Source: an uncultured Candidatus Poseidoniales archaeon (GTDB taxonomy: Archaea; Thermoplasmatota; Poseidoniia; Poseidoniales; Poseidoniaceae). From it: a stretch of 64,000 nucleotides of DNA. The stretch lies in NCBI GenBank assembly GCA_905181715.1, contig CAJIYT010000013.1, positions 10,942-74,941 of the forward strand. The letters run 5' to 3'. Position numbers and translations under genes: made by a program. The notes under the pieces are model-generated. The model had not been told where the DNA came from and did no database searches. It was given only the letters and a program-made list of their open reading frames with translations. Positions 7,506 through 64,000 of this stretch are shown here, piece after piece (position 1 is the stretch's first letter; every line of letters starts with the position of its first letter).

Positions 7506-8300
7506 TCAGTAAAGGGCTTTCAATCCGTAACGTATCAATCCCTCTTGGGCATATATTCTTCTGACGACTAATTCTACAAGTGAGCCTATTTCTGGTTTCT
7601 TTTCCTCGTCATCTGCAAGTAAGAATACGCCTTTAACTCCACATTCGAGCGTGAGCAATAATGTGGTCATTCCATTGAGGATTGGAGAGCGGAATGCGAA
7701 TTCTGAGGGTGATCCTGCAGCAGCAGATTCAGTCCATGATTCAATAATACCCCTGCGTGGGAGAGGTAATGTATTCATTTCTCGATTATTTTCTCTTCCA
7801 GGCCAGAAATAATTATCGCCATCTTTTTGTGCTAGTAAGCGAAGTCGTGATTCGAGCCCTGTGAGGTATTGTTGCTCGCTTACATATGCTCCTTGTGACA
7901 CAGAACGCAATTCCTCATCCCATGCTCTTCTCATCTCCAGATGGAATGCAGCATCCATTTCTTCACCATCTTCTGCAGTCGAATGAATCATACTTGAATC
8001 CTTAGTGATAGAAAGTGAAGCATCTTTGTGTACGACTATTTTCCACTCGCCATCTTCTGATACTACATTGAATCCATAAGCGGCAATTACCCTTTCATCT
8101 ACTTCACTCGGGCATTGAATAGTTGTGACCTCACATTCTTCTTCTAGGGCGCACAATCCAGTGATTGCAAGGCATGTGTAGTCACTGTCGGGGCCGTGGA
8201 CTCTATCTCCATCCAAGATAAACCTTGAACGAACTAAAACACCACTTGCTGCCAGACAGAGAATGTGTCCGTGTAAGGGGATGCATTCATTCGCAGCCAT
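7506..8300 (-). CDS. DUF35-like OB-fold protein (thiolase/HMG-CoA synthase scaffold family) with atypical N-terminal domain
   Basis: The C-terminal 95 aa or so match the DUF35 OB-fold pattern (GIIESWTES..., GSLVELVVRRIYAQEGLIRYGLKA). ATG 8300 shares one base with the thiolase stop (TGATG). The usual 4-Cys rubredoxin-like ribbon is not visible. Confidence 0.55.
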   Translation of the reverse strand: MAANECIPLHGHILCLAASGVLVRSRFILDGDRVHGPDSDYTCLAITGLCALEEECEVTTIQCPSEVDERVIAAYGFNVVSEDGEWKIVVHKDASLSITKDSSMIHSTAEDGEEMDAAFHLEMRRAWDEELRSVSQGAYVSEQQYLTGLESRLRLLAQKDGDNYFWPGRENNREMNTLPLPRRGIIESWTESAAAGSPSEFAFRSPILNGMTTLLLTLECGVKGVFLLADDEEKKPEIGSLVELVVRRIYAQEGLIRYGLKALY

Positions 8301-9469
8301 CAAATCTCCCTCCCCAAAATATGCACAGCACAAGTTGCTCCACTGCCACCTACATTGTGACACAGTGCATCTTCGACATCTAGAACCTGGCGGGATGGTT
8401 CGACCTCGTTTCTTAATTGCTTGAATGCCTCTACGATTTGTCCGACGCCAGTAGAACCTAGTGGGTGACCTTTAGACTTCAGTCCTCCACTCGGATTGAT
8501 TGTGACATCTCCTTGGTTGAGAATGCCGCGCCCCTCGCGAGCAAAAAGGCCGCCTTCGCCGCGATTGGCAAATCCAAGGTCTTCACATGCCATCACTTCA
8601 GCTATGGTAAAACAGTCATGTACCTCGGCTAATCCTATGTCATTAGCCGTTAAACCAGACATAGAATAGGCTTTTTTCGCTGCACGTTGACTAGCGAGGA
8701 TCTGTGTGGATGATTCACGGTCATGTAAGGCAAGATAATCCGAGGCTGCACCACTGCCTTTTACCCATACTGGTGTATCACTTAGTTTGCGAGCCACGTG
8801 GTCTGCTGCTAATATCACACAAGACGCACCATCTGAAGTTGGGCAACAATCGTAGAGAGTCAACGGGTCGGCGACCATGAAACCGGAGGCTGCTTTTTCA
8901 AAAGAGACCTCCTTGCGAATATGTGCGACTTCGTTTGCAAACCCATGTGCATGGTTTTTGACTGCAACGTGGACTAAATCATCATGATTGGAGTCAAACT
9001 CATGGAAATATCGCCGAGCCATCAATGCATAGGTTGCAGGAAATGTAAGTCCAGCAAGTCTCTCCCACTCGGTATCACCACTAACTCCAAGCCAGAAGCG
9101 CTTTCTCTCCGGTGTCAAATCATTCATCTTCTCGATACCGCCTGCGACCACGACATCTGCTTCGCCACTTTTGATCGCCATCCAAGCATCACGGAATGCA
9201 AAACCAGAGGATGCACAGGCATTCTCTACACGACGCACAGAAATACCTTCCATTCCAGAATGTTCGGTCATTAATGCTGCAGTATTGCCAATTTGTTGGC
9301 CGCCGAAAGCGGTACTACCGATATAGGCCTCTTCGATCAAAGAGGACTCTAAGCCCTTGTCAACACTTGATATTGCCTTCTGGGCTGCCTCAGCCCACAT
9401 TTCTTTCAATGTTGATGAAAGATTGCCATATGGTGTCTGGCCGGCACCGATGATGGCGACATCTACCAT
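8300..9469 (-). CDS. acetyl-CoA C-acetyltransferase (archaeal thiolase, SCP-x type)
   Basis: MVDVAIIGAGQTPYG start, active-site region VENACASSG, and C-terminal NPSGGLKSKGHPLGSTG and CHNVGGSG thiolase signatures. Start taken at ATG 9469; the track ORF extends to 9529. Confidence 0.85.
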   Translation of the reverse strand: MVDVAIIGAGQTPYGNLSSTLKEMWAEAAQKAISSVDKGLESSLIEEAYIGSTAFGGQQIGNTAALMTEHSGMEGISVRRVENACASSGFAFRDAWMAIKSGEADVVVAGGIEKMNDLTPERKRFWLGVSGDTEWERLAGLTFPATYALMARRYFHEFDSNHDDLVHVAVKNHAHGFANEVAHIRKEVSFEKAASGFMVADPLTLYDCCPTSDGASCVILAADHVARKLSDTPVWVKGSGAASDYLALHDRESSTQILASQRAAKKAYSMSGLTANDIGLAEVHDCFTIAEVMACEDLGFANRGEGGLFAREGRGILNQGDVTINPSGGLKSKGHPLGSTGVGQIVEAFKQLRNEVEPSRQVLDVEDALCHNVGGSGATCAVHILGREI

Positions 9470-9560
9470 ATGACCGCCAGCATCACTTTGCTGTTGAACC
9501 TCTCGGTCGTTTTGGTGCATAGGATTCAAGAACAGGCCCCTTGTCGACGAGTCGATTGCG

Positions 9561-10672: not shown

Positions 10673-11434
10673 ATGACCGGCGAGTTGATCGTGCTAAAAT
10701 GGGGCGGCGGTCTCATCACTCACAAGTCAGATGAGTGTAGCCCTGACCTTGAGTCAATAGCCGAACTTTCCAAAGTAGTAAACACCTTGATCTCTGAAGG
10801 TAATGAACTTATTTTGGTTCATGGTGCTGGTTCATATGGTCATATCAAAGCAAAAAAATCCCGCTTATCTGAAGGTGATATTGGTCTAATTGGTCAATTG
10901 GAAGCAGTTGCAGAAGTTCGAAAAGATATGTTGGAATTGAATCGGTTGGTGATGAAAGATTTGGATGGCGAGGCTTATCCTCCCCACTTATGGGCTACAG
11001 AAACCGGCCCCGATTTCCACGGGAAATTACCCCTCAACCCTCCTTTGACAATTGTTTTCGGGGATGTAGTTGATTGTGCTAATAATTCATGGGGTATCTT
11101 GTCTGGTGATGATCTAGTTCTTCGCTATGCAATAGAATGCAACGCTGCACGAGTTGTTTTTGCAATTCGTGGCGTAGATGGTTTGCTTACGGCTCCACCT
11201 GATGAGGGTGGTGAATTAATTGAGGAAATACATGGTCGTGCAGACTACCGTGGTTCTCATAGTGAAGGTATTGACGTCACTGGTGGTATTTCTCTAAAAG
11301 TGATAAGGGCTGAAAAAATAGCATTATCTGGGATTGAAGTTTACTTCGTTAATGGCGAAAATATGAACTCGGTTTACAATGCCTGTAGCGGGAAAACGGC
11401 GACTGGGACTAAATTCTTCAGCCGGAATGCTTGA
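10673..11434 (+). CDS. ipk: isopentenyl phosphate kinase (amino-acid kinase fold)
   Basis: IVLKWGGGLITHK and LVHGAGSYGH motifs are typical of archaeal IPK. It sits 37 nt upstream of the IDI::GGPPS gene. Confidence 0.8.
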   Translation: MTGELIVLKWGGGLITHKSDECSPDLESIAELSKVVNTLISEGNELILVHGAGSYGHIKAKKSRLSEGDIGLIGQLEAVAEVRKDMLELNRLVMKDLDGEAYPPHLWATETGPDFHGKLPLNPPLTIVFGDVVDCANNSWGILSGDDLVLRYAIECNAARVVFAIRGVDGLLTAPPDEGGELIEEIHGRADYRGSHSEGIDVTGGISLKVIRAEKIALSGIEVYFVNGENMNSVYNACSGKTATGTKFFSRNA

Positions 11435-11471: not shown

Positions 11472-13196
11472 ATGGCTTCGTACGACGTTGATGACGTTCC
11501 AACCCAGGACATAGGCTCTATTGCCGCTTCTGTCCTTTCAGCAAGTGATGCTGAACAGAGTAAATTAATGTCAGAATCAGTGATTCTAGTTGATGAATGG
11601 GACAATTACCTCGGTAGTGCTTCTAAGGCAGACTGTCACTACGGTGCAGGTGCTTATCATCGTGCATTCAGTGTCCTATTATTCGGAAGTGATAATCGCC
11701 TATTATTGCAAAAGAGAGCAGCAGATAAGATAACCTTTCCAGGGGTTTGGGCTAACTCATGTTGTTCGCACCCTTTGGCTTCAGATGAGGAAATGGATCT
11801 TGAAAACGCCATTGGAGTGAAAAGGGCGGCTATACGTAAACTTGAGCAAGAACTTGGCATAAACCCTGAACAAATATCGGTTGATGATTTTTCATTCATC
11901 ACCCGCATGCGTTATCAATCTCGCATGAACCAAGAATGGATTGAACGTGAAATAGATCATATTCTAATCATTCGTGCGGATGTCGATATAGCAGCAAATC
12001 CCAATGAAGTAGATGAGGTTCGCTGGGTTAGTCGTGATGAACTCGAAGATATGCTAATTGATGAGGGTGACGAGATAATCGCACCCTGGTTCAGATGTAT
12101 AGCTGCTCGTCTGATGGATGTCAAGTGGTGGGAAGGCGTCCCAGAATATGATGACAAAATCCATGATATGGGCGATGTATCGCACATGCTCGCTTCGGCA
12201 ATAGGTGCTGATTTGACCACCAGTATCGCCGAAGTTAAGCCTTTGGTGGAAAAACGAATCGAAAGAGCGTTGACACACACTTCGCACAAGAGACTCTCTG
12301 ACGCCATGATGCATTTGGTCGATGGTGGAGGTAAGAGACTGCGTGCAACCCTACCTTGGCTTGTGGCTAAGGCGGTTGGCGACACGCATGCAGGAATGCT
12401 AGATGTTGGAGCAGCAATCGAGACCATCCATAATTTCACCTTGGTTCATGATGATATCATGGACGATGATAATATCCGTCGTGGCCGTCCAGCAGTCCAC
12501 ATAGAATACGGATTGCCGACAGCGATAAACGCAGGCGATGCAATGTTAGCTATCGCCTTCGAAGCGTTATCGGTTGCAGAAGGTCTTGACCCGTTGATGT
12601 TACCCTTCCTCGTAAAGAGAATTGGACGTATGGTGCGAAGAGTATCAGAAGGACAACAACTCGACATAGAATTCGAGGATAGGCTTGCGGTTAGTGAGGA
12701 TGAATACCTTGAGATGATTAGAGGCAAAACCGCAGTGATGTTCCTCACCTGTGCTGAAGTAGGTGCACATATGGCAGGAGCAGATGATGAAACAATTCAA
12801 TGCATGCATGATTGGGGTTTAGCTATTGGAATGTGCTTCCAATTAATGGATGATTTGATTGACGTTATTTCAGATTCAGAGATCTTGGGCAAACCGTCAG
12901 GTAGTGACGTCATACAGGGAAAGCGCACACTGATGGTAATACATGCACTTGCTCAAGATGATTGCAAAGCCAAGCAAGATTTACTCTCTGTTTTGGGAAT
13001 TGGTGCTGAAGCTAGTGCCGAGCAGATAGCATTGGGCCGTGATTCTCTCGAAGAACTTGGATCTATTACCTATGCACGTGAAAAAGCCGAGGCTTATCAT
13101 GCAACAGCGCATCTCTGCTTAGACCGCATTGCAGATAGTCCTGCACTAAAGGCACTTAGGGAATTGACCGATCATCAACTAAATCGAATCAGCTAA
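11472..13196 (+). CDS. fusion protein: type-1 isopentenyl-diphosphate isomerase (Nudix fold) + trans-polyprenyl (geranylgeranyl) diphosphate synthase
   Basis: The N-terminal half carries HRAFSVLLF, LLLQKRAADKITFPGVWANSCCSHPL, EREIDHIL and PWF (eukaryote-like IDI1). The C-terminal half carries FARM LVHDDIMDDD (about 12450-12470) and SARM FQLMDDLIDV, plus GKPSGSD..GKRT. GAGGGAG SD precedes ATG 11472. Confidence 0.85.
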   Translation: MASYDVDDVPTQDIGSIAASVLSASDAEQSKLMSESVILVDEWDNYLGSASKADCHYGAGAYHRAFSVLLFGSDNRLLLQKRAADKITFPGVWANSCCSHPLASDEEMDLENAIGVKRAAIRKLEQELGINPEQISVDDFSFITRMRYQSRMNQEWIEREIDHILIIRADVDIAANPNEVDEVRWVSRDELEDMLIDEGDEIIAPWFRCIAARLMDVKWWEGVPEYDDKIHDMGDVSHMLASAIGADLTTSIAEVKPLVEKRIERALTHTSHKRLSDAMMHLVDGGGKRLRATLPWLVAKAVGDTHAGMLDVGAAIETIHNFTLVHDDIMDDDNIRRGRPAVHIEYGLPTAINAGDAMLAIAFEALSVAEGLDPLMLPFLVKRIGRMVRRVSEGQQLDIEFEDRLAVSEDEYLEMIRGKTAVMFLTCAEVGAHMAGADDETIQCMHDWGLAIGMCFQLMDDLIDVISDSEILGKPSGSDVIQGKRTLMVIHALAQDDCKAKQDLLSVLGIGAEASAEQIALGRDSLEELGSITYAREKAEAYHATAHLCLDRIADSPALKALRELTDHQLNRIS

Positions 13197-16659: not shown

Positions 16660-16793
16660 GATATACCCTCTTTAGAAGCAGTCTTGCGACCTACCTCCCC
16701 TATTTCATGGTGCCGATGTGCTTCGGCTCATTGCGAGGACATACGGCTGCTTGCCATACCAATATTGAAGGATGCCATTCATCTGGAACGTAC

Positions 16794-18059
16794 ATGGCCT
16801 TCAGGGATGCACTTAGTGCAGCAACACTTGTCAGCGACACAGTAAGTCTGATCCATGAGATGTTTGACATATCTCGCGATAGAGGCCATGAGATGTTAAT
16901 ATTTGATTCCATCGAACAAGCACCCGGCCATAGAGTAGCCATCAATTTCCTGACCCGAAACCGAATCTGTGCAGCACTCAATATCAAACCTGAAGAGTTC
17001 CTTGACCTTTTACAATGGGCAATGAATAATCCTTCTACTCCAGAGATGGTCGAAGAAGGTCTGGTCCAACAATGCACACAATCCCCCGTTGATTTGAAAG
17101 TATTACCAATTCCTCATCACTGGCGTCAAGACCGTGGGCGTTACATGTCAGCTAGTGTGATAATCGCCGAACAAGATGGTGTTCGAAATATGAGTTTCCA
17201 TCGCCAATTTCTCCGTGATGAGAATCACCTCGTAGCAAGATTGGTTCCACGCCATTTGCGCTCTATGACCGACAAATCTTTGGCTGAAAACAAGGAATTA
17301 CCAATTGCCATCATCAATGCACCCGATCCCGTGGTCTTACTTGCTGCCGCTATGTCTTTTGATCACAACCTCGATGAGTTGACCGTCGCTGCTGCATTGC
17401 ATGAGAAGATTTACTCACGACCTTTACAATTAGTCAAACTTCCAAATGGCATCTCTGTTCCAGCAGATGCAGAATATGCTATGTGGGGTAGTATTACCCC
17501 CGAATGCGATGATGAGGGGCCATATGTTGACATTACAGGGACAGTTGATGACGTCCGTCAAGAACCGGTTATTCGAATAGATGGAGTTCATCATCGTCAA
17601 GATCCTATCTTCCATGCACTGATTCCTGCTGCTTCCGAACACATCACTCTGATGGGCTTGCCAAGGGCTCCAACTATCAAGCAAGCAGTCAATGAGGTCT
17701 GTGAATGCCTTGACGTACATATGACTGAAGGTGGTTGTGGTTGGTTAGCTGCAGTAGTAAAAATCAAGGTCAAGCATCCAGATGATGCAAAAAAGGCGAT
17801 TATGGCGGCACTTGCTGGTCATCGTTCGATGAAAATGGTGACTGTTGTCGATGAGGATATCGATATCGAAGACCCGGTTAGGGTAGAATGGGCTTTAATG
17901 ACCAGATGGCAACCTGACCGTGACACTATCATCCTTAGCGGTGAGAAAGGTAGTAGCCTTGATCCAACACGTGATGAAAACGGGTTGACCAGTAAGATTG
18001 GCTATGATGCTTGTATCCCCTATGGTTTAGACCATGGTCCATTCACCTCTGTTCAGTGA
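16794..18059 (+). CDS. UbiD-family (prFMN-dependent) decarboxylase
   Basis: Colinear with the UbiD family over its length (RNMSFHRQFL, ARLVPRHL, GPYVDITG, E-rich metal/prFMN region). ATG 16794 was chosen over the longer track ORF, whose N-terminus is Cys/His-rich junk facing the S12 promoter. Confidence 0.8.
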   Translation: MAFRDALSAATLVSDTVSLIHEMFDISRDRGHEMLIFDSIEQAPGHRVAINFLTRNRICAALNIKPEEFLDLLQWAMNNPSTPEMVEEGLVQQCTQSPVDLKVLPIPHHWRQDRGRYMSASVIIAEQDGVRNMSFHRQFLRDENHLVARLVPRHLRSMTDKSLAENKELPIAIINAPDPVVLLAAAMSFDHNLDELTVAAALHEKIYSRPLQLVKLPNGISVPADAEYAMWGSITPECDDEGPYVDITGTVDDVRQEPVIRIDGVHHRQDPIFHALIPAASEHITLMGLPRAPTIKQAVNEVCECLDVHMTEGGCGWLAAVVKIKVKHPDDAKKAIMAALAGHRSMKMVTVVDEDIDIEDPVRVEWALMTRWQPDRDTIILSGEKGSSLDPTRDENGLTSKIGYDACIPYGLDHGPFTSVQ

Positions 18060-18070
18060 GTTTGGTAAAG

Positions 18071-19039
18071 ATGGGCGAAACTGATGTTCTGCAACACCCA
18101 CGGCGTAATCTCGGTAATCGACATCGTGCTCAGGCAGAACGTTTTGTCAAATTAGCCACGCGAGATCCAGATAACGCCGCACAGAATCTGGGTTGGGCTG
18201 AACAAAATGCTCGTCAAGCAGTACTCTATGATTTCACCGATGAACGTAATTGGCGTTGTCTTGCTACCATCAAGACGACCCTTGAAGATGAAGCAGGTCT
18301 TCACATCGTGCTAGAAGATTTATTCGTAGTTCTCGGGCGGGAATCAGAGCGTTTAGATCAACTCAAAGGTGTCGAATTATTATCTATCGGGTGTGAATTA
18401 TTGGAGGCAGCATTCCTGGCCGACCCACTCGATGCTGAGGAATGGTTCCGTCGCAAGGGAGAGTCCGATCTGCCTGGGTTCAGCACGAGATGCAAATTAC
18501 TCGACTTTACAGATCAGCGTGCAAATATAATCTATGGCCGAAGATTGGAGCAGATACGTCGAGCAGGACATGATGATTTATTCATTGATTTGGTCAAGCA
18601 CCTTCTCGCTCACCGACCAGCAAATCATGAATTATGGCTTGAACTAGGGCGTTTGCATGAGAGAAGAGACGAGACCGAACAAGCCTGGCTCTGCTATGAT
18701 CACGTCCAATCATTGCGCCCACATCATGCAGTCAGGGATGAGTTCCTTACTCGTCTGTTAGGCCGGATGGATGGCAAGGAGAAGCAACCATGGTCTGGCC
18801 CAAGCGTCGAAACACGCAAAGAATTCCTTGCCAAGATGATCAAACTAACACCTCCATCTTTCGCGAAGGATGTAGTTGATGACGGAGATGGAGAGATATT
18901 CAACCAAGAAGAACTACGTCTCAAAGCATTGATTGCTGCTGGTGATGGTGCAGAGGCCTTCTTCTTAGCCCGTTCATTAGTTACTTCAGGTGAGAAATGG
19001 GCAGATGAATATCTTCTACAAGCCAAGGAGATGCTCTAA
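18071..19039 (+). CDS. hypothetical helical-repeat (TPR-like) protein
   Basis: All-helical composition with W/L/E-rich repeats (ELWLELGRLHERRDETEQAWLCYDHV). It starts 11 nt after the UbiD stop and its stop overlaps the Nudix start (TAATG). Confidence 0.5.
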   Translation: MGETDVLQHPRRNLGNRHRAQAERFVKLATRDPDNAAQNLGWAEQNARQAVLYDFTDERNWRCLATIKTTLEDEAGLHIVLEDLFVVLGRESERLDQLKGVELLSIGCELLEAAFLADPLDAEEWFRRKGESDLPGFSTRCKLLDFTDQRANIIYGRRLEQIRRAGHDDLFIDLVKHLLAHRPANHELWLELGRLHERRDETEQAWLCYDHVQSLRPHHAVRDEFLTRLLGRMDGKEKQPWSGPSVETRKEFLAKMIKLTPPSFAKDVVDDGDGEIFNQEELRLKALIAAGDGAEAFFLARSLVTSGEKWADEYLLQAKEML

Positions 19040-19413
19040 TGTACCCGGCTTTTTGTCTAGCTCTGGTTACCCGGAAAAGTGATGATGCACTACTGTTGGT
19101 CAAACATCCACAACGTGGTTGGGAATTGCCTGGAGGTCATTGTGAAATCAATGAAAGTCCAGAACAAACCCTTATGCGTGAATTGGCTGAAGAAACCGGT
19201 ATTTCCGGTATTTTGAAATTATGGAACCGAGATTATTACCCCGATGGACTAGTGGGTTGGGTAGAGGTTGAAGATAATCGTACCTGGTGGAATAGTAGCG
19301 ATGAAAAAGTTAGCGAAGTCAGGTGGTGGCCAAAAAACCCTGAGATGACTCATTGGGATGAACAGGAATTAGTCGATCTCAGAAATTGGCTTCAAGCGCA
19401 GCGAGTTCACTGA
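19039..19413 (+). CDS. Nudix hydrolase
   Basis: Perfect Nudix box G-x5-E-x7-REUxEExGU in GHCEINESPEQTLMRELAEETGI. Confidence 0.85.
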   Translation: MYPAFCLALVTRKSDDALLLVKHPQRGWELPGGHCEINESPEQTLMRELAEETGISGILKLWNRDYYPDGLVGWVEVEDNRTWWNSSDEKVSEVRWWPKNPEMTHWDEQELVDLRNWLQAQRVH

Positions 19414-20416
19414 TGCGAGTGCTCCATTCTTCACTCTCTGTGAGTGCATAGCATAGATTGGCGAACTCGACATCTTCAACTTCACCAGATCTCTGCAAAG
19501 TATGATTAAAGAAGTCTAATCGTTTTGCTCGCTCACATAGTATCAGCAGAGCTTTGAGATCTCCTCTTTGGTTACCACCAATGTCTATTGTAGCCTTTTC
19601 TACGCACCAAGAAAGAACACCTTCCATGTCTTCAGGATGGATTGCTGGTTTGATTTCCTCTTCCTCAGCATCACGTGGTTTGGCATTTGCTAACTGTTCT
19701 TTCATACGAGCAGCATCCTGTTCTATATGTGGTAATGCAATCTCGATAAAGATGGCGCCAGACTCGATTGCGAGTGCGATGTTTTCAGCAATAATTGCGT
19801 GGATGTGGGCAATAAATGAATTACGCAGTGCCTCGTAAATACGATCAAACGCTAACAGGATTCTTGCGGCATTCATACGTGAAATGGCGATAGTCTCATC
19901 AGCATGACCATCCTTGCGAGAGATATCACCGTAAACTTGTAACGCCATCAAAGGTTCATCGAGAGCGAGGTGGAATGCCGCCTTATTTATCAGAGCGATA
20001 TCATGTTCACGACTGGCTTTTGCTACACTTTTCAAACGAGTCTCTGCCCAGGAGAAATCTTCACGTGCTTGTTCAAAATCCTCAGATTCAAAACGGATTA
20101 ATCCAGCTTCCATACGCAGGCGTCCCTCTAGTAGGAGGTCACGCTGCTCAGGATCACGTACCACTGCCAGTGCCTTTTCGACATCGGATATACTAACCTC
20201 GCCAGCAATGCGCATCACTACTAGGTCTAGTACGGCATTTTCAGCTGCAGACATCTCATCTCTGAGCACATCTACTAGTGGACTGCCATAGAGCAAGGCT
20301 ATCTCTGCGACTGCAAGCCACGAGGTCCAACCCAAATCATCTCGCATTTTTTGTATTAAGCTTAGATCCTCGTTATTATGCCAGGATTCGATAATAGATT
20401 CAGGATTCACCCTCAT
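19379..20416 (-). CDS. hypothetical helical protein, last gene of the exosome superoperon
   Basis: ATG 20416 is preceded by a strong GAGGAGGG SD located inside the 3' end of the DHH gene (17-nt overlap). The product is all-helical and I recognise no family. Confidence 0.5.
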   Translation of the reverse strand: MRVNPESIIESWHNNEDLSLIQKMRDDLGWTSWLAVAEIALLYGSPLVDVLRDEMSAAENAVLDLVVMRIAGEVSISDVEKALAVVRDPEQRDLLLEGRLRMEAGLIRFESEDFEQAREDFSWAETRLKSVAKASREHDIALINKAAFHLALDEPLMALQVYGDISRKDGHADETIAISRMNAARILLAFDRIYEALRNSFIAHIHAIIAENIALAIESGAIFIEIALPHIEQDAARMKEQLANAKPRDAEEEEIKPAIHPEDMEGVLSWCVEKATIDIGGNQRGDLKALLILCERAKRLDFFNHTLQRSGEVEDVEFANLCYALTESEEWSTRISELAALEANF

Positions 20417-21380
20417 CCCTCCTCGTCTTAGCCAAGAGATTGATGAATGCGGTTTCAGCAGCAACACGGTCAATTGTGACAGTTAATCCAGCAGCCCCAT
20501 CATGTCCACCGCCCTCTCCTCCGAGTTCATGGGCTAAATTCTGCAGCATTTCACCCAAGTGTACACCTTGGCGAGTACTCACGCGTGAAGCACGTGTAGT
20601 GAGGCGTGTCTTGCCATCTCTGCTGCGAGAGACCATTGCTACTTCAGCTCCCAATCCAACCAGTGCTCCAGCAACTCTTCCTTCGAGAGTCGAGGCATTG
20701 GTGTGAACTAGATTCCATGGGCCAGCTTCAATATTATTCGCTCGAGCCATGGCCTTGACCATTGCTCCTCGCTCTGAAGGCGAGGTGACGCGTTCTTCGA
20801 CATATTCGATAAAAGACTGATACTCAAATCCTGCTCCTTCCATCAAAGATGCAGCGGTTGCCAACGCTTGTCCATCAGCGTGTCGGAAACGCCCAGTATC
20901 AGTAATAAGTCCAGCCAATAGCAACTTCCTCACATTATCTGTAAGAGATTCTTGCGAGAAATCATTTAGATATTCATGGATTATTTGGGTTGTAGAACGT
21001 CTTTCCAGGCGACATTCAAAATCATCATCAGAAAATTCCCAGTCACTAGTAGAATGATGATCTATGATGCAGATTGGTACTCCCTCCGGAAGGTTAAGTC
21101 CTGTTTGAGCAGGTCCTGCGGAATCGACGATGATAATGCCACCTAGTTTGTCAGGCCAAGATGGGTTTTGCGATAATTGACGAAAGGGTGCTTTCATTTC
21201 ATCACACAGACGTTTAGCCATACGTCCAATATGGACGCCACAGGCCATCAGTTCAGGACGCGAGGATGCCAGAGCGATACCCGAACCTATTGTGTCCATG
21301 TCGCCATTACGGTGAGATAGAATAGGAACTGCTCCACGATTACAAGCAGCGGTTATCCACTCATGGAGTTTAGTGAGCAC
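20400..21380 (-). CDS. DHH/DHHA1-family phosphoesterase (NrnA / short RecJ-like)
   Basis: DHH motifs HRNGDMDTIGS, IVDSAG, IIDHHS and DTGRF, plus DHHA1 GGGHDGAAG. Confidence 0.8.
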   Translation of the reverse strand: MLTKLHEWITAACNRGAVPILSHRNGDMDTIGSGIALASSRPELMACGVHIGRMAKRLCDEMKAPFRQLSQNPSWPDKLGGIIIVDSAGPAQTGLNLPEGVPICIIDHHSTSDWEFSDDDFECRLERRSTTQIIHEYLNDFSQESLTDNVRKLLLAGLITDTGRFRHADGQALATAASLMEGAGFEYQSFIEYVEERVTSPSERGAMVKAMARANNIEAGPWNLVHTNASTLEGRVAGALVGLGAEVAMVSRSRDGKTRLTTRASRVSTRQGVHLGEMLQNLAHELGGEGGGHDGAAGLTVTIDRVAAETAFINLLAKTRRDEGES

Positions 21381-63356: not shown

Positions 63357-63389
63357 TAGATTCATCAAGTGTGACAATTGCGCTGGTAT

Positions 63390-64000
63390 ATGGACAAGGA
63401 ATGGTCATCTGACGTTGTCCTTGCTGGAAGTACTAGCGATTGGTGTAAACGATTACCAAAAGCCGAAACTAATTGGCCTGCGGGGGTAATTGCAGCATGG
63501 AAAACTCTCTCTGGCGGTAGTAGCCTATCTCTTGAGCAAGGTCTAGAACTCTATGCTGAACCCGACTTGGCTTCTGTTGGGGAATTGGCAGCGATGGTGA
63601 AGAGTTCTCGCTTTGGCACTCATGTCTTCTTCAATTCCAATGTTCATGTCAACCAAACGAATATTTGTGTTCTAGCCTGTAAATTCTGCGCCTTCCGTAG
63701 AGGGAGAAAAGCAAAGGATGCATATGCAATGGATATCGAAACATATCTTTCAGAAGTTGGAAAGTTCGCAGATCATGTCGATGAAGTACATTCAGTAGGC
63801 GGCCTTCACCCTGATTGGGGAATCGAACACTATGAAGAATTATTCAAAAGCGCAACTACGACCTTTCCTCATATCCATTTCAAAGCCCTTACAGCCGTGG
63901 AAATACAACACATATCACGTCTATCAAATATTTCAATCGAAACATGCTTGAAGCGCCTGAAAAAGGCTGGATTATCATCTCTCCCAGGTGGCGGTGCAGA
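63390..64000 (+). CDS. radical SAM enzyme of the MqnE/MqnC/CofH family (3' end outside window)
   Basis: Not in the ORF track because it is open at the window edge. My own translation from ATG 63390 gives ...HVFFNSNVHVNQTNICVLACKFCAFRRG..., i.e. a CxxxCxxC cluster, followed by VHSVGGLHPDW, HFKALTAVEI and LKKAGLSSLPGGGA. These are typical of futalosine-pathway/FO-synthase radical SAM enzymes. Confidence 0.7.
   Translation, partial: MDKEWSSDVVLAGSTSDWCKRLPKAETNWPAGVIAAWKTLSGGSSLSLEQGLELYAEPDLASVGELAAMVKSSRFGTHVFFNSNVHVNQTNICVLACKFCAFRRGRKAKDAYAMDIETYLSEVGKFADHVDEVHSVGGLHPDWGIEHYEELFKSATTTFPHIHFKALTAVEIQHISRLSNISIETCLKRLKKAGLSSLPGGGA

Follow-up and report, generated by a model that had tools for sequence, protein, structure and literature searches.

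What does the UbiD-family decarboxylase encoded in this stretch of DNA do, and why is its gene followed so closely by genes for a tetratricopeptide repeat (TPR)-like protein and a Nudix hydrolase? The whole stretch that was analysed, 64,000 nucleotides and referred to here as the window, comes from Marine Group II (Poseidoniales), and the nearest relatives of its proteins are named Candidatus Poseidoniales or Poseidoniaceae. The source assembly, in 52 contigs, has a completeness of 85.5%. Marine Group II ranks with the most abundant archaea in the surface ocean, and we know of no cultured representative. The three genes, as defined by their open reading frames and translations, are as follows:

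16794-18059, + strand: UbiD-family gene (421 amino acids)
18071-19039, + strand: gene for a TPR-like, all-helical protein (322 amino acids)
19039-19413, + strand: Nudix hydrolase gene (124 amino acids)

The UbiD-family gene very probably encodes anhydromevalonate phosphate decarboxylase (AMPD), i.e., the enzyme that converts trans-anhydromevalonate 5-phosphate to isopentenyl phosphate (IP) in a reaction dependent on prenylated FMN (prFMN). As to its neighbors, the best explanation as a whole, to which we give a rough probability of 0.55, is that AMPD is accompanied by the TPR-like and Nudix proteins as partners in the supply of its cofactor. AMPD of the archaeal mevalonate pathway was reportedly described from Aeropyrum pernix by Hayakawa and co-workers in PNAS in 2018. 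Its presence in Poseidoniales is expected, and the assignment is a useful annotation; of the mevalonate routes in archaea, the archaeal one has been reported to predominate (PMC11052028).

The AMPD role, one of two that an earlier note on this DNA had offered for the decarboxylase, was strongly borne out by the company that the gene keeps. An AcnX-type phosphomevalonate dehydratase (PMDh), mevalonate kinase (MVK) and isopentenyl phosphate kinase (IPK) are all present in the same genome. UbiD genes of the window type were found in 39 of 41 relatives and, when called at E <= 1e-30, in 158 of 201 Thermoplasmatota genomes, AcnX being found in 162 of the latter. When the UbiD and AcnX lists were set side by side and counted by hand, both genes were present in 156 genomes, UbiD only in 2, AcnX only in 6 and neither in 37 (8 discordant), although, because the 201 genomes are related to one another, this co-occurrence is a pattern rather than a statistical test. 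Families of Thermoplasmatota that lack one of the two genes also lack the other (f9, f10, f18, f26, f28 and f29), and the two are adjacent in many genomes of the phylum. In Marine Group III (MGIII), the sister order in the same class, there is an AcnX-UbiD cluster with UbiX about 1-2 kb away. In none of 41 Poseidoniales genomes did a decarboxylase of the mevalonate diphosphate decarboxylase (MDD) family exceed the cut-off.

Homologs of the window gene were also followed through 80 named loci, taken from Bathyarchaeia, Hadarchaeia, Micrarchaeota, Aenigmatarchaeota, Iainarchaeota, Asgard archaea, Nitrosopumilales and Anaerolineae. AcnX lies directly downstream of the homolog in 70 of the 80, and other neighbors are UbiX (26 loci), IPK (31) and a prenyl diphosphate synthase (17). 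The AMPD-PMDh order at those 70 loci is also that of the Methanosarcina mazei genes that have been used experimentally, i.e., MM_1526 (AMPD), MM_1525 (PMDh-L) and MM_1524 (PMDh-S) (PMC12547664). Like the A. pernix and M. mazei enzymes, the Poseidoniales protein is a UbiD-family member of about 420 amino acids, encoded by a single gene per genome and accompanied by an AcnX-type dehydratase, MVK, IPK and UbiX, and its N-terminus (MAFRD) resembles that of M. mazei AMPD (MTYRD, read from a cloning primer). It differs in that its gene is unlinked from the dehydratase, which here is one fused chain, and has order-specific TPR-like and Nudix genes downstream in its place.

A maximum-likelihood tree of 77 UbiD-family sequences, with branch support from the Shimodaira-Hasegawa-like approximate likelihood ratio test (SH-aLRT), agreed with this assignment. 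The window protein fell within a fully supported Poseidoniales clade, sister to AMPD-type genes of other Thermoplasmatota that also lack linkage to AcnX, and all of these unlinked AMPDs nest inside the AcnX-linked radiation. A group of paralogs encoded next to MqnP split off on a long branch with 100% support. Phylogenetic placement, which the earlier note had put forward as a check, thus set the window gene within the AcnX-linked radiation and apart from the MqnP-adjacent paralogs. Two points weigh against the AMPD reading. Poseidoniales AMPD lies on a long branch with the other unlinked Thermoplasmatota AMPDs and not with that of its class-mate MGIII, and the presumed orthology rests on a phylogeny labelled by genomic context, together with co-occurrence.

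The same tree bears on the history of the pathway. Poseidoniales AMPD is not sister to MGIII AMPD (100% support for the unlinked grouping), and the fused AcnX of Poseidoniales is nearest to that of MGIII. The histories of AMPD and AcnX in Poseidoniales therefore appear to be discordant, because AMPD groups with other Thermoplasmatota families while the fused AcnX is closest to MGIII; replacement, transfer or old paralogy might each account for this. AMPD-AcnX(-UbiX/IPK) clusters also occur in Anaerolineae and other Chloroflexota, and their sequences are nested among archaeal ones in the tree.

Membership of the UbiD family is clear. The window protein matches PF01977 with 160.2 bits (cut-off 23.3), the UbiD_C domain PF20696 with 116.5 bits (cut-off 24.2) and TIGR00148 with 315.5 bits (cut-off 244.85); it thus passes the general UbiD models but falls short of every specific NCBIfam model listed for it. 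It carries the UbiD motifs N132-x4-R137 (NMSFHR), E195 (DELTV) and E241-x4-D246 (EGPYVD), the columns of which are invariant in 17 AMPD-type sequences. By motif spacing, rather than by structural alignment, these residues were mapped to N168, R173, E233, E277 and E282 of Fdc1, which we take to be its metal and cofactor ligands and catalytic residues. A further motif, GGC.WLH, reads GGCGWLA in the window (17730-17747, AMPD residues 313-318). Its last position is His in most of the AMPD-type sequences compared and Asn in two, whereas the four Poseidoniales sequences in the comparison all have Ala or Ser there.

In public records the AMPD-type gene is labelled only "UbiD family decarboxylase" or "furandicarboxylate decarboxylase". 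The second label corresponds to a different function, i.e., that of an enzyme decarboxylating (hetero)aromatic acids in catabolism, of which the furandicarboxylate decarboxylase HmfF is an example. HmfF did give the best PDB match (6h6x, E = 5e-61), and some JGI records call relatives of the window protein "2,5-furandicarboxylate decarboxylase 1". However, no AMPD structure was among the solved-structure matches, so that HmfF is simply the nearest relative with a solved structure. The gene is near-universal in the lineage, as its presence in 39 of the 41 relatives indicates, it co-occurs with and adjoins PMDh across archaea, DPANN included, and no aromatic-catabolism genes lie nearby in the window. 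A role in aromatic-acid decarboxylation therefore found no support, and we regard it as very improbable.

The second role offered by the earlier note was that of an MqnL-like decarboxylase acting late in the futalosine route to menaquinone, and this one did not hold up. Two observations speak for it: the lineage carries MqnP- and MqnL-like genes, and, as had been noted, a Mqn-type radical SAM gene is present near the end of the window:

63378-63998: fragment of an MqnE/MqnC-type radical SAM gene

The late-step role is, however, taken by a second UbiD paralog elsewhere in the genome (G000:C4:145093-147039; 648 amino acids, about 28% identical to the window protein). Against TIGR03701, the model for MqnL/SCO4490-type decarboxylases (cut-off 495.9), this paralog scored 474.7 bits and the window protein 118.8. 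An MqnP-like UbiA prenyltransferase gene directly follows the paralog, the ends of the two overlapping, and a geranylgeranyl reductase gene lies upstream; the MqnP-like gene adjoins the 648-residue type of paralog in all six Poseidoniales genomes examined (this one and five others). Because of the TIGR03701 score and the MqnP-like neighbor, we assign the menaquinone step to the 648-residue protein. The window enzyme and MqnL have membership of the UbiD family and dependence on prFMN in common, and a copy of each occurs in the same genome, but the tree sets the two paralogs apart with 100% support. That the window gene encodes the MqnL-like enzyme is, of all the readings considered, the one to which we give least credence. 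The 648-residue paralog consists of a UbiD core of about 450 residues and a C-terminal extension of about 200 residues without any family match. The lengths of the corresponding open frames in relatives (620-715 residues) suggest that this extension is conserved.

The earlier description of the three genes as a tight operon was confirmed by the open reading frames and translations, down to their coordinates, the 11-nt gap and the TAATG overlap. The AMPD stop codon is followed by the spacer gtttggtaaag (TGA, 11 nt, ATG), and at the TPR-like/Nudix junction (ctcTAATGtac) the stop and start codons have one base in common, with a Shine-Dalgarno-like AAGGAG placed 9 nt 5' of the Nudix ATG. For AMPD, a start at 16794 was preferred over an ATG at 16707 on the grounds of ortholog lengths (421-426 amino acids) and the conserved N-terminus MAFRD. 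Given the 11-nt gap, the 1-nt overlap, the AAGGAG and the fact that at least 28 of 41 relatives show this spacing again, it is likely that the AMPD, TPR-like and Nudix genes form a single transcription unit.

The claim that the arrangement is conserved also proved correct. At least 28 of the 41 relatives, from three families of the order, have the full trio on one contig and equally tightly spaced, and the spacing is kept even where AMPD identity falls to 43-45% (G007, G018 and G027). As evidence for a common function, synteny stood only in part: the trio is conserved, but this carries less weight than had been assumed, because the genes on both sides are syntenic too. Across the order the trio is flanked by rpS12 on one side and, on the other, by genes for a 364-residue helical protein and a DHH phosphoesterase. 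Conserved gene order would thus in part be a matter of inheritance, and taken by itself is weak evidence of a shared function. The argument for shared function is made instead by the stop-start coupling, by the strict fidelity of both order-specific genes to this locus and by biochemical logic.

These flanking genes are among several observations that count against a partnership. AMPD and the TPR-like gene occur without the Nudix gene in 5 of the 41 relatives (G013, G015, G023, G028 and G033), where the TPR-like gene directly abuts the gene for the convergent helical protein, a clean deletion. The Nudix gene is cleanly absent from the genera g11, g2, g15 and g20, in which AMPD and usually the TPR-like gene are kept, and one relative, G004, has AMPD without either partner. 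In G004 (L026:2897-4057), a membrane protein of the fatty acid desaturase family is encoded after AMPD, in place of the TPR-like and Nudix proteins. These calls cover the relatives in which the region is present and its gene content could be settled. Since several genera have lost it, the Nudix gene is either dispensable or redundant. In addition, Poseidoniales UbiX lies apart from AMPD, with unrelated genes around it.

A competing account is that the TPR-like and Nudix proteins are unrelated passengers, the Nudix enzyme being a housekeeping pyrophosphatase (nucleotide-sanitising, or acting on dinucleotides or RNA 5' ends) and the TPR-like protein having a role of its own, with the order of the genes inherited in compact genomes. 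The synteny of the rpS12, helical-protein and DHH genes across the order, the loss of the Nudix gene without loss of AMPD and the separate location of UbiX all fit such an account. It does not, however, explain why the stop-start overlap and short gaps are kept at AMPD identities as low as 43%, why the TPR-like gene is beside AMPD in every locus examined or why every Nudix ortholog is at the AMPD locus, and the several other Nudix paralogs in each genome could cover housekeeping. On balance we consider it unlikely that both proteins are passengers, although this is the strongest of the competing explanations. We put the chance that the two proteins serve AMPD or prFMN at about even.

The TPR-like protein is highly conserved within the order. 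Its 26 orthologs align over their full length with a mean column identity of 56%, and the invariant residues include HPRR (residues 9-12), WAE (42-44), RR (157-158), RP.N.E.W (182-189) and CYD (208-210). The window copy itself gave only sub-threshold TPR matches, but 22 of the 26 orthologs match TPR_14 (best E = 8.2e-09). AlphaFold2 produced an all-alpha model with a predicted local distance difference test (pLDDT) score of 86.8, for which Foldseek found generic TPR solenoids only, with low template modeling (TM) scores (0.2-0.3); an enzyme-like fold was rejected, Foldseek having returned generic TPR matches alone. The model thus describes a putative TPR-like solenoid without a catalytic fold, and a protein-binding adaptor is a reasonable reading of it. 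With generic TPR adaptors (consensus TPR designs, the TPR domains of OGT and SPY, PEX5 and Hop) it has in common the all-alpha repeat solenoid, but it differs from them in its confinement to Poseidoniales and in its own invariant polar and arginine-rich motifs, listed above.

Of the genomes sampled from two Poseidoniales families, 21 of 21 in one and 13 of 14 in the other carry the TPR-like family, and a genome search of MGIII and the remainder of the phylum did not find it. When 1.84 billion representative proteins were searched with a profile, a few clusters were full-length and many hits were fragments; all else was matches to single repeats of TPR proteins that are unrelated. Wherever a locus was examined, the gene was immediately 3' of AMPD. 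In sister Thermoplasmatota some AMPD genes have unannotated neighbors of about 297 amino acids; these were tried as distant homologs and rejected (hhalign probability <=0.1%), and the other AMPD neighbors there are unrelated housekeeping genes.

The third protein has the features of a genuine Nudix hydrolase. It matches PF00293 with 57.8 bits and contains a complete Nudix box:

19135-19203, + strand: Nudix box GX5EX7REUXEEXGU, residues 33-55, GHCEINESPEQTLMRELAEETGI

The catalytic residues R47, E48, E51 and E52 do not vary among 24 sequences, and neither does RGWE.PGG, a segment specific to the family; the AlphaFold2 model (pLDDT 96.5) has the canonical Nudix fold and matches Nudix structures. 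Its orthologs occur only in Poseidoniales and only at the AMPD locus, and each Poseidoniales genome also has several other Nudix candidates. No substrate class was indicated by NCBIfam, the PDB sequence search or the fold search, all of which gave generic Nudix similarity only. The nearest matches in sequence or structure are diadenosine tetraphosphate (Ap4A) hydrolase, RppH/YtkD, MutT, NudC, NrtR and NUDT18, with Escherichia coli YmfB/NudJ at rank 39. Two aspects of this result weigh against prenyl diphosphates as the substrate. The likeness to characterised enzymes in the NCBIfam and PDB sequence searches is restricted to the Nudix box, and the structural neighbors are mixed (NrtR, NudC, RppH, Ap4A hydrolase, MutT and YmfB). 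The top NCBIfam and PDB hits, which resemble YtkD/RppH, MutT and Ap4A hydrolase, would suit a housekeeping enzyme, although they too cover only the Nudix box. We are aware of no sequence signature by which Nudix enzymes that prefer C5 or C10 prenyl diphosphates and yield the monophosphates (NudB, NudF, NudI and NudJ, or the plant NUDX1 type) could be recognised.

A precedent for the proposed reaction comes from E. coli, where NudB, NudF, NudI and NudJ are reported to turn dimethylallyl diphosphate (DMAPP) into the dimethylallyl monophosphate (DMAP) that goes into prFMN (Wang et al. 2018, cited in PMC12359138). Like these enzymes, the window protein is small and single-domain with a canonical box, and the same role is proposed for it; structures of NudJ (YmfB; 4nfx and 3dku) are among its fold matches, with TM scores of about 0.5-0.57. 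It nevertheless has no specific sequence relationship to any of the four beyond the Nudix box. To our knowledge, the E. coli enzymes are promiscuous and are not encoded beside a UbiD gene, whereas the window enzyme is operon-linked to one. By analogy, its substrate could be DMAPP or isopentenyl diphosphate (IPP), a plausible suggestion to which we give a rather low probability.

The Nudix enzyme might instead provide prFMN synthesis with its flavin, or serve some other cofactor, e.g., by splitting FAD into FMN (for UbiX) and AMP. The Nudix superfamily includes FAD and NADH pyrophosphatases, the window enzyme is the operon partner of a prFMN-dependent enzyme, and NudC-type structures are among its nearest folds. 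It shows no specific similarity to any FAD pyrophosphatase, however, and at 124 residues lacks the extra domains of NudC-type enzymes, while FMN is normally made directly by riboflavin kinase. We therefore consider such a role improbable.

Nudix genes beside AMPD are rare elsewhere. Outside Poseidoniales, none was found in 17 Thermoplasmatota loci and one in the 80 named loci, in an Aenigmatarchaeota genome, which leaves 96 loci with none. This locus (L095:5992-10602; JAFGDH010000028.1) encodes, in order, AMPD, PMDh-L, PMDh-S, UbiX, a 129-residue Nudix protein and IPK, with the gene ends mostly overlapping. Its Nudix protein is not orthologous to that of the window (23% identity). Nor does it favor a link to prFMN in particular: its closest homolog (45% identical), from another Aenigmarchaeota genome (L172), is encoded in an MDD-type mevalonate cluster, which needs no prFMN. 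In L172 the Nudix gene heads a cluster with genes for a HAD hydrolase, a GHMP kinase, a histidine phosphatase and an MVD-like decarboxylase. Because the nearest homolog lies in a cluster of this type, the evidence points to a small Nudix family that may track mevalonate genes in Aenigmarchaeota, with a putative role in prenyl phosphate metabolism generally rather than in prFMN synthesis specifically.

The reading that we prefer, in which AMPD has its two neighbors as partners in cofactor supply, can be set out as follows. AMPD requires prFMN, which UbiX builds from FMN and DMAP. In Poseidoniales, AMPD would have left the ancestral AMPD-dehydratase(-UbiX-IPK) cluster and then gained two order-specific, translationally coupled downstream genes. 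The TPR-like protein would be a protein-binding adaptor for AMPD or for the supply of its cofactor, and the Nudix enzyme a small-molecule diphosphatase, the likeliest substrates of which would be the C5 prenyl diphosphates, DMAPP and IPP, yielding DMAP and IP. DMAP from the Nudix enzyme would feed UbiX, which, although encoded elsewhere, would make the prFMN with which AMPD is primed. In its most specific form, i.e., that the two proteins are a dedicated cofactor-supply module for AMPD in which the Nudix enzyme converts DMAPP to DMAP and the TPR-like protein brings AMPD to UbiX or to the Nudix enzyme for the handover and maturation of prFMN, the proposal is doubtful.

We know of no organism in which the in vivo source of DMAP for UbiX is settled. 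AMPD of the archaeal pathway needs a cofactor made from the pathway's own end product, and a Nudix gene that is translationally coupled to AMPD offers a concrete handle on where the DMAP comes from, just as the conserved TPR-like partner is a candidate accessory factor for a UbiD-family enzyme. If the dedicated module were real, DMAP for making prenylated flavin would for the first time have a physiological source with genetic linkage, and the module would bear on how a pathway is primed when its product, DMAPP, is needed to activate one of its own enzymes. If both partners proved to be passengers, the clean split of the lineage's two UbiD paralogs into AMPD and an MqnL-like enzyme would still stand, and pinning the isoprenoid route of Marine Group II to the archaeal AMPD/PMDh pathway is a useful, if expected, annotation. 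The AMPD-TPR-Nudix operon is a lineage-specific variant; in the literature searched there was no paper on it, nor one linking Nudix enzymes, UbiX or prFMN, and archaea.

Other genes of the pathway lie in the window, among them the IPK and thiolase genes that had been placed near the decarboxylase, a placement that proved accurate:

8300-9529: thiolase
10673-11434, + strand: IPK (NF040647, 125.1 bits; cut-off 120)
11472-13196, + strand: fusion of type-1 IPP isomerase (IDI1; TIGR02150, 157.3 bits; cut-off 105.8) with a short-chain prenyl diphosphate synthase (IdsA/geranylgeranyl diphosphate synthase models)

IPK, which acts in the step after AMPD, is in a separate transcription unit 5.4 kb 5' of it. 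The IDI1-prenyl synthase fusion is predicted both to make and to consume DMAPP, the proposed substrate of the Nudix enzyme. MVK is encoded on contig C35. Phosphomevalonate dehydratase, which the earlier note had suggested looking for, is present on contig C26 (G000:C26:5687-7420) as a single chain of 578 amino acids with the AcnX large-subunit and swivel (small-subunit) domains. Such fused AcnX proteins are common to Poseidoniales and MGIII (49-54% identity), whereas other Thermoplasmatota and M. mazei have two subunits. The pathway would thus run through thiolase, MVK, the fused AcnX dehydratase, AMPD, IPK and the IDI1-prenyl synthase fusion.

UbiX is not in the window, as had been observed, and none was found in the whole assembly (85.5% complete). 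True absence was nevertheless rejected. UbiX is present in 39 of 41 relatives, where it lies directly upstream of a gene for an M28 peptidase, and contig C40 of the assembly ends inside that peptidase gene (G000:C40:23936-24690) with the UbiX-proximal end running off the contig. Because the contig breaks at the site expected for UbiX, we attribute the missing gene to a gap in the assembly; the search showed that UbiX exists in the lineage and was lost here to a contig break.

Some smaller features of the locus complete its description. The gene for the 364-residue helical protein (19379-20473, - strand) is convergent with the Nudix gene and runs 35 nt into its 3' end. The protein has no family match, and the position of its gene is kept across Poseidoniales; the possibility that the TPR-like protein is its paralog was rejected, there being no similarity between them. 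On the other side, the gene 5' of AMPD, rpS12, is divergent. A short element, read from the sequence, precedes AMPD:

16761-16766, + strand: AATATT, 28-33 nt 5' of the AMPD start codon

It may be a candidate archaeal TATA element, the position of which would imply a leaderless or near-leaderless transcript.

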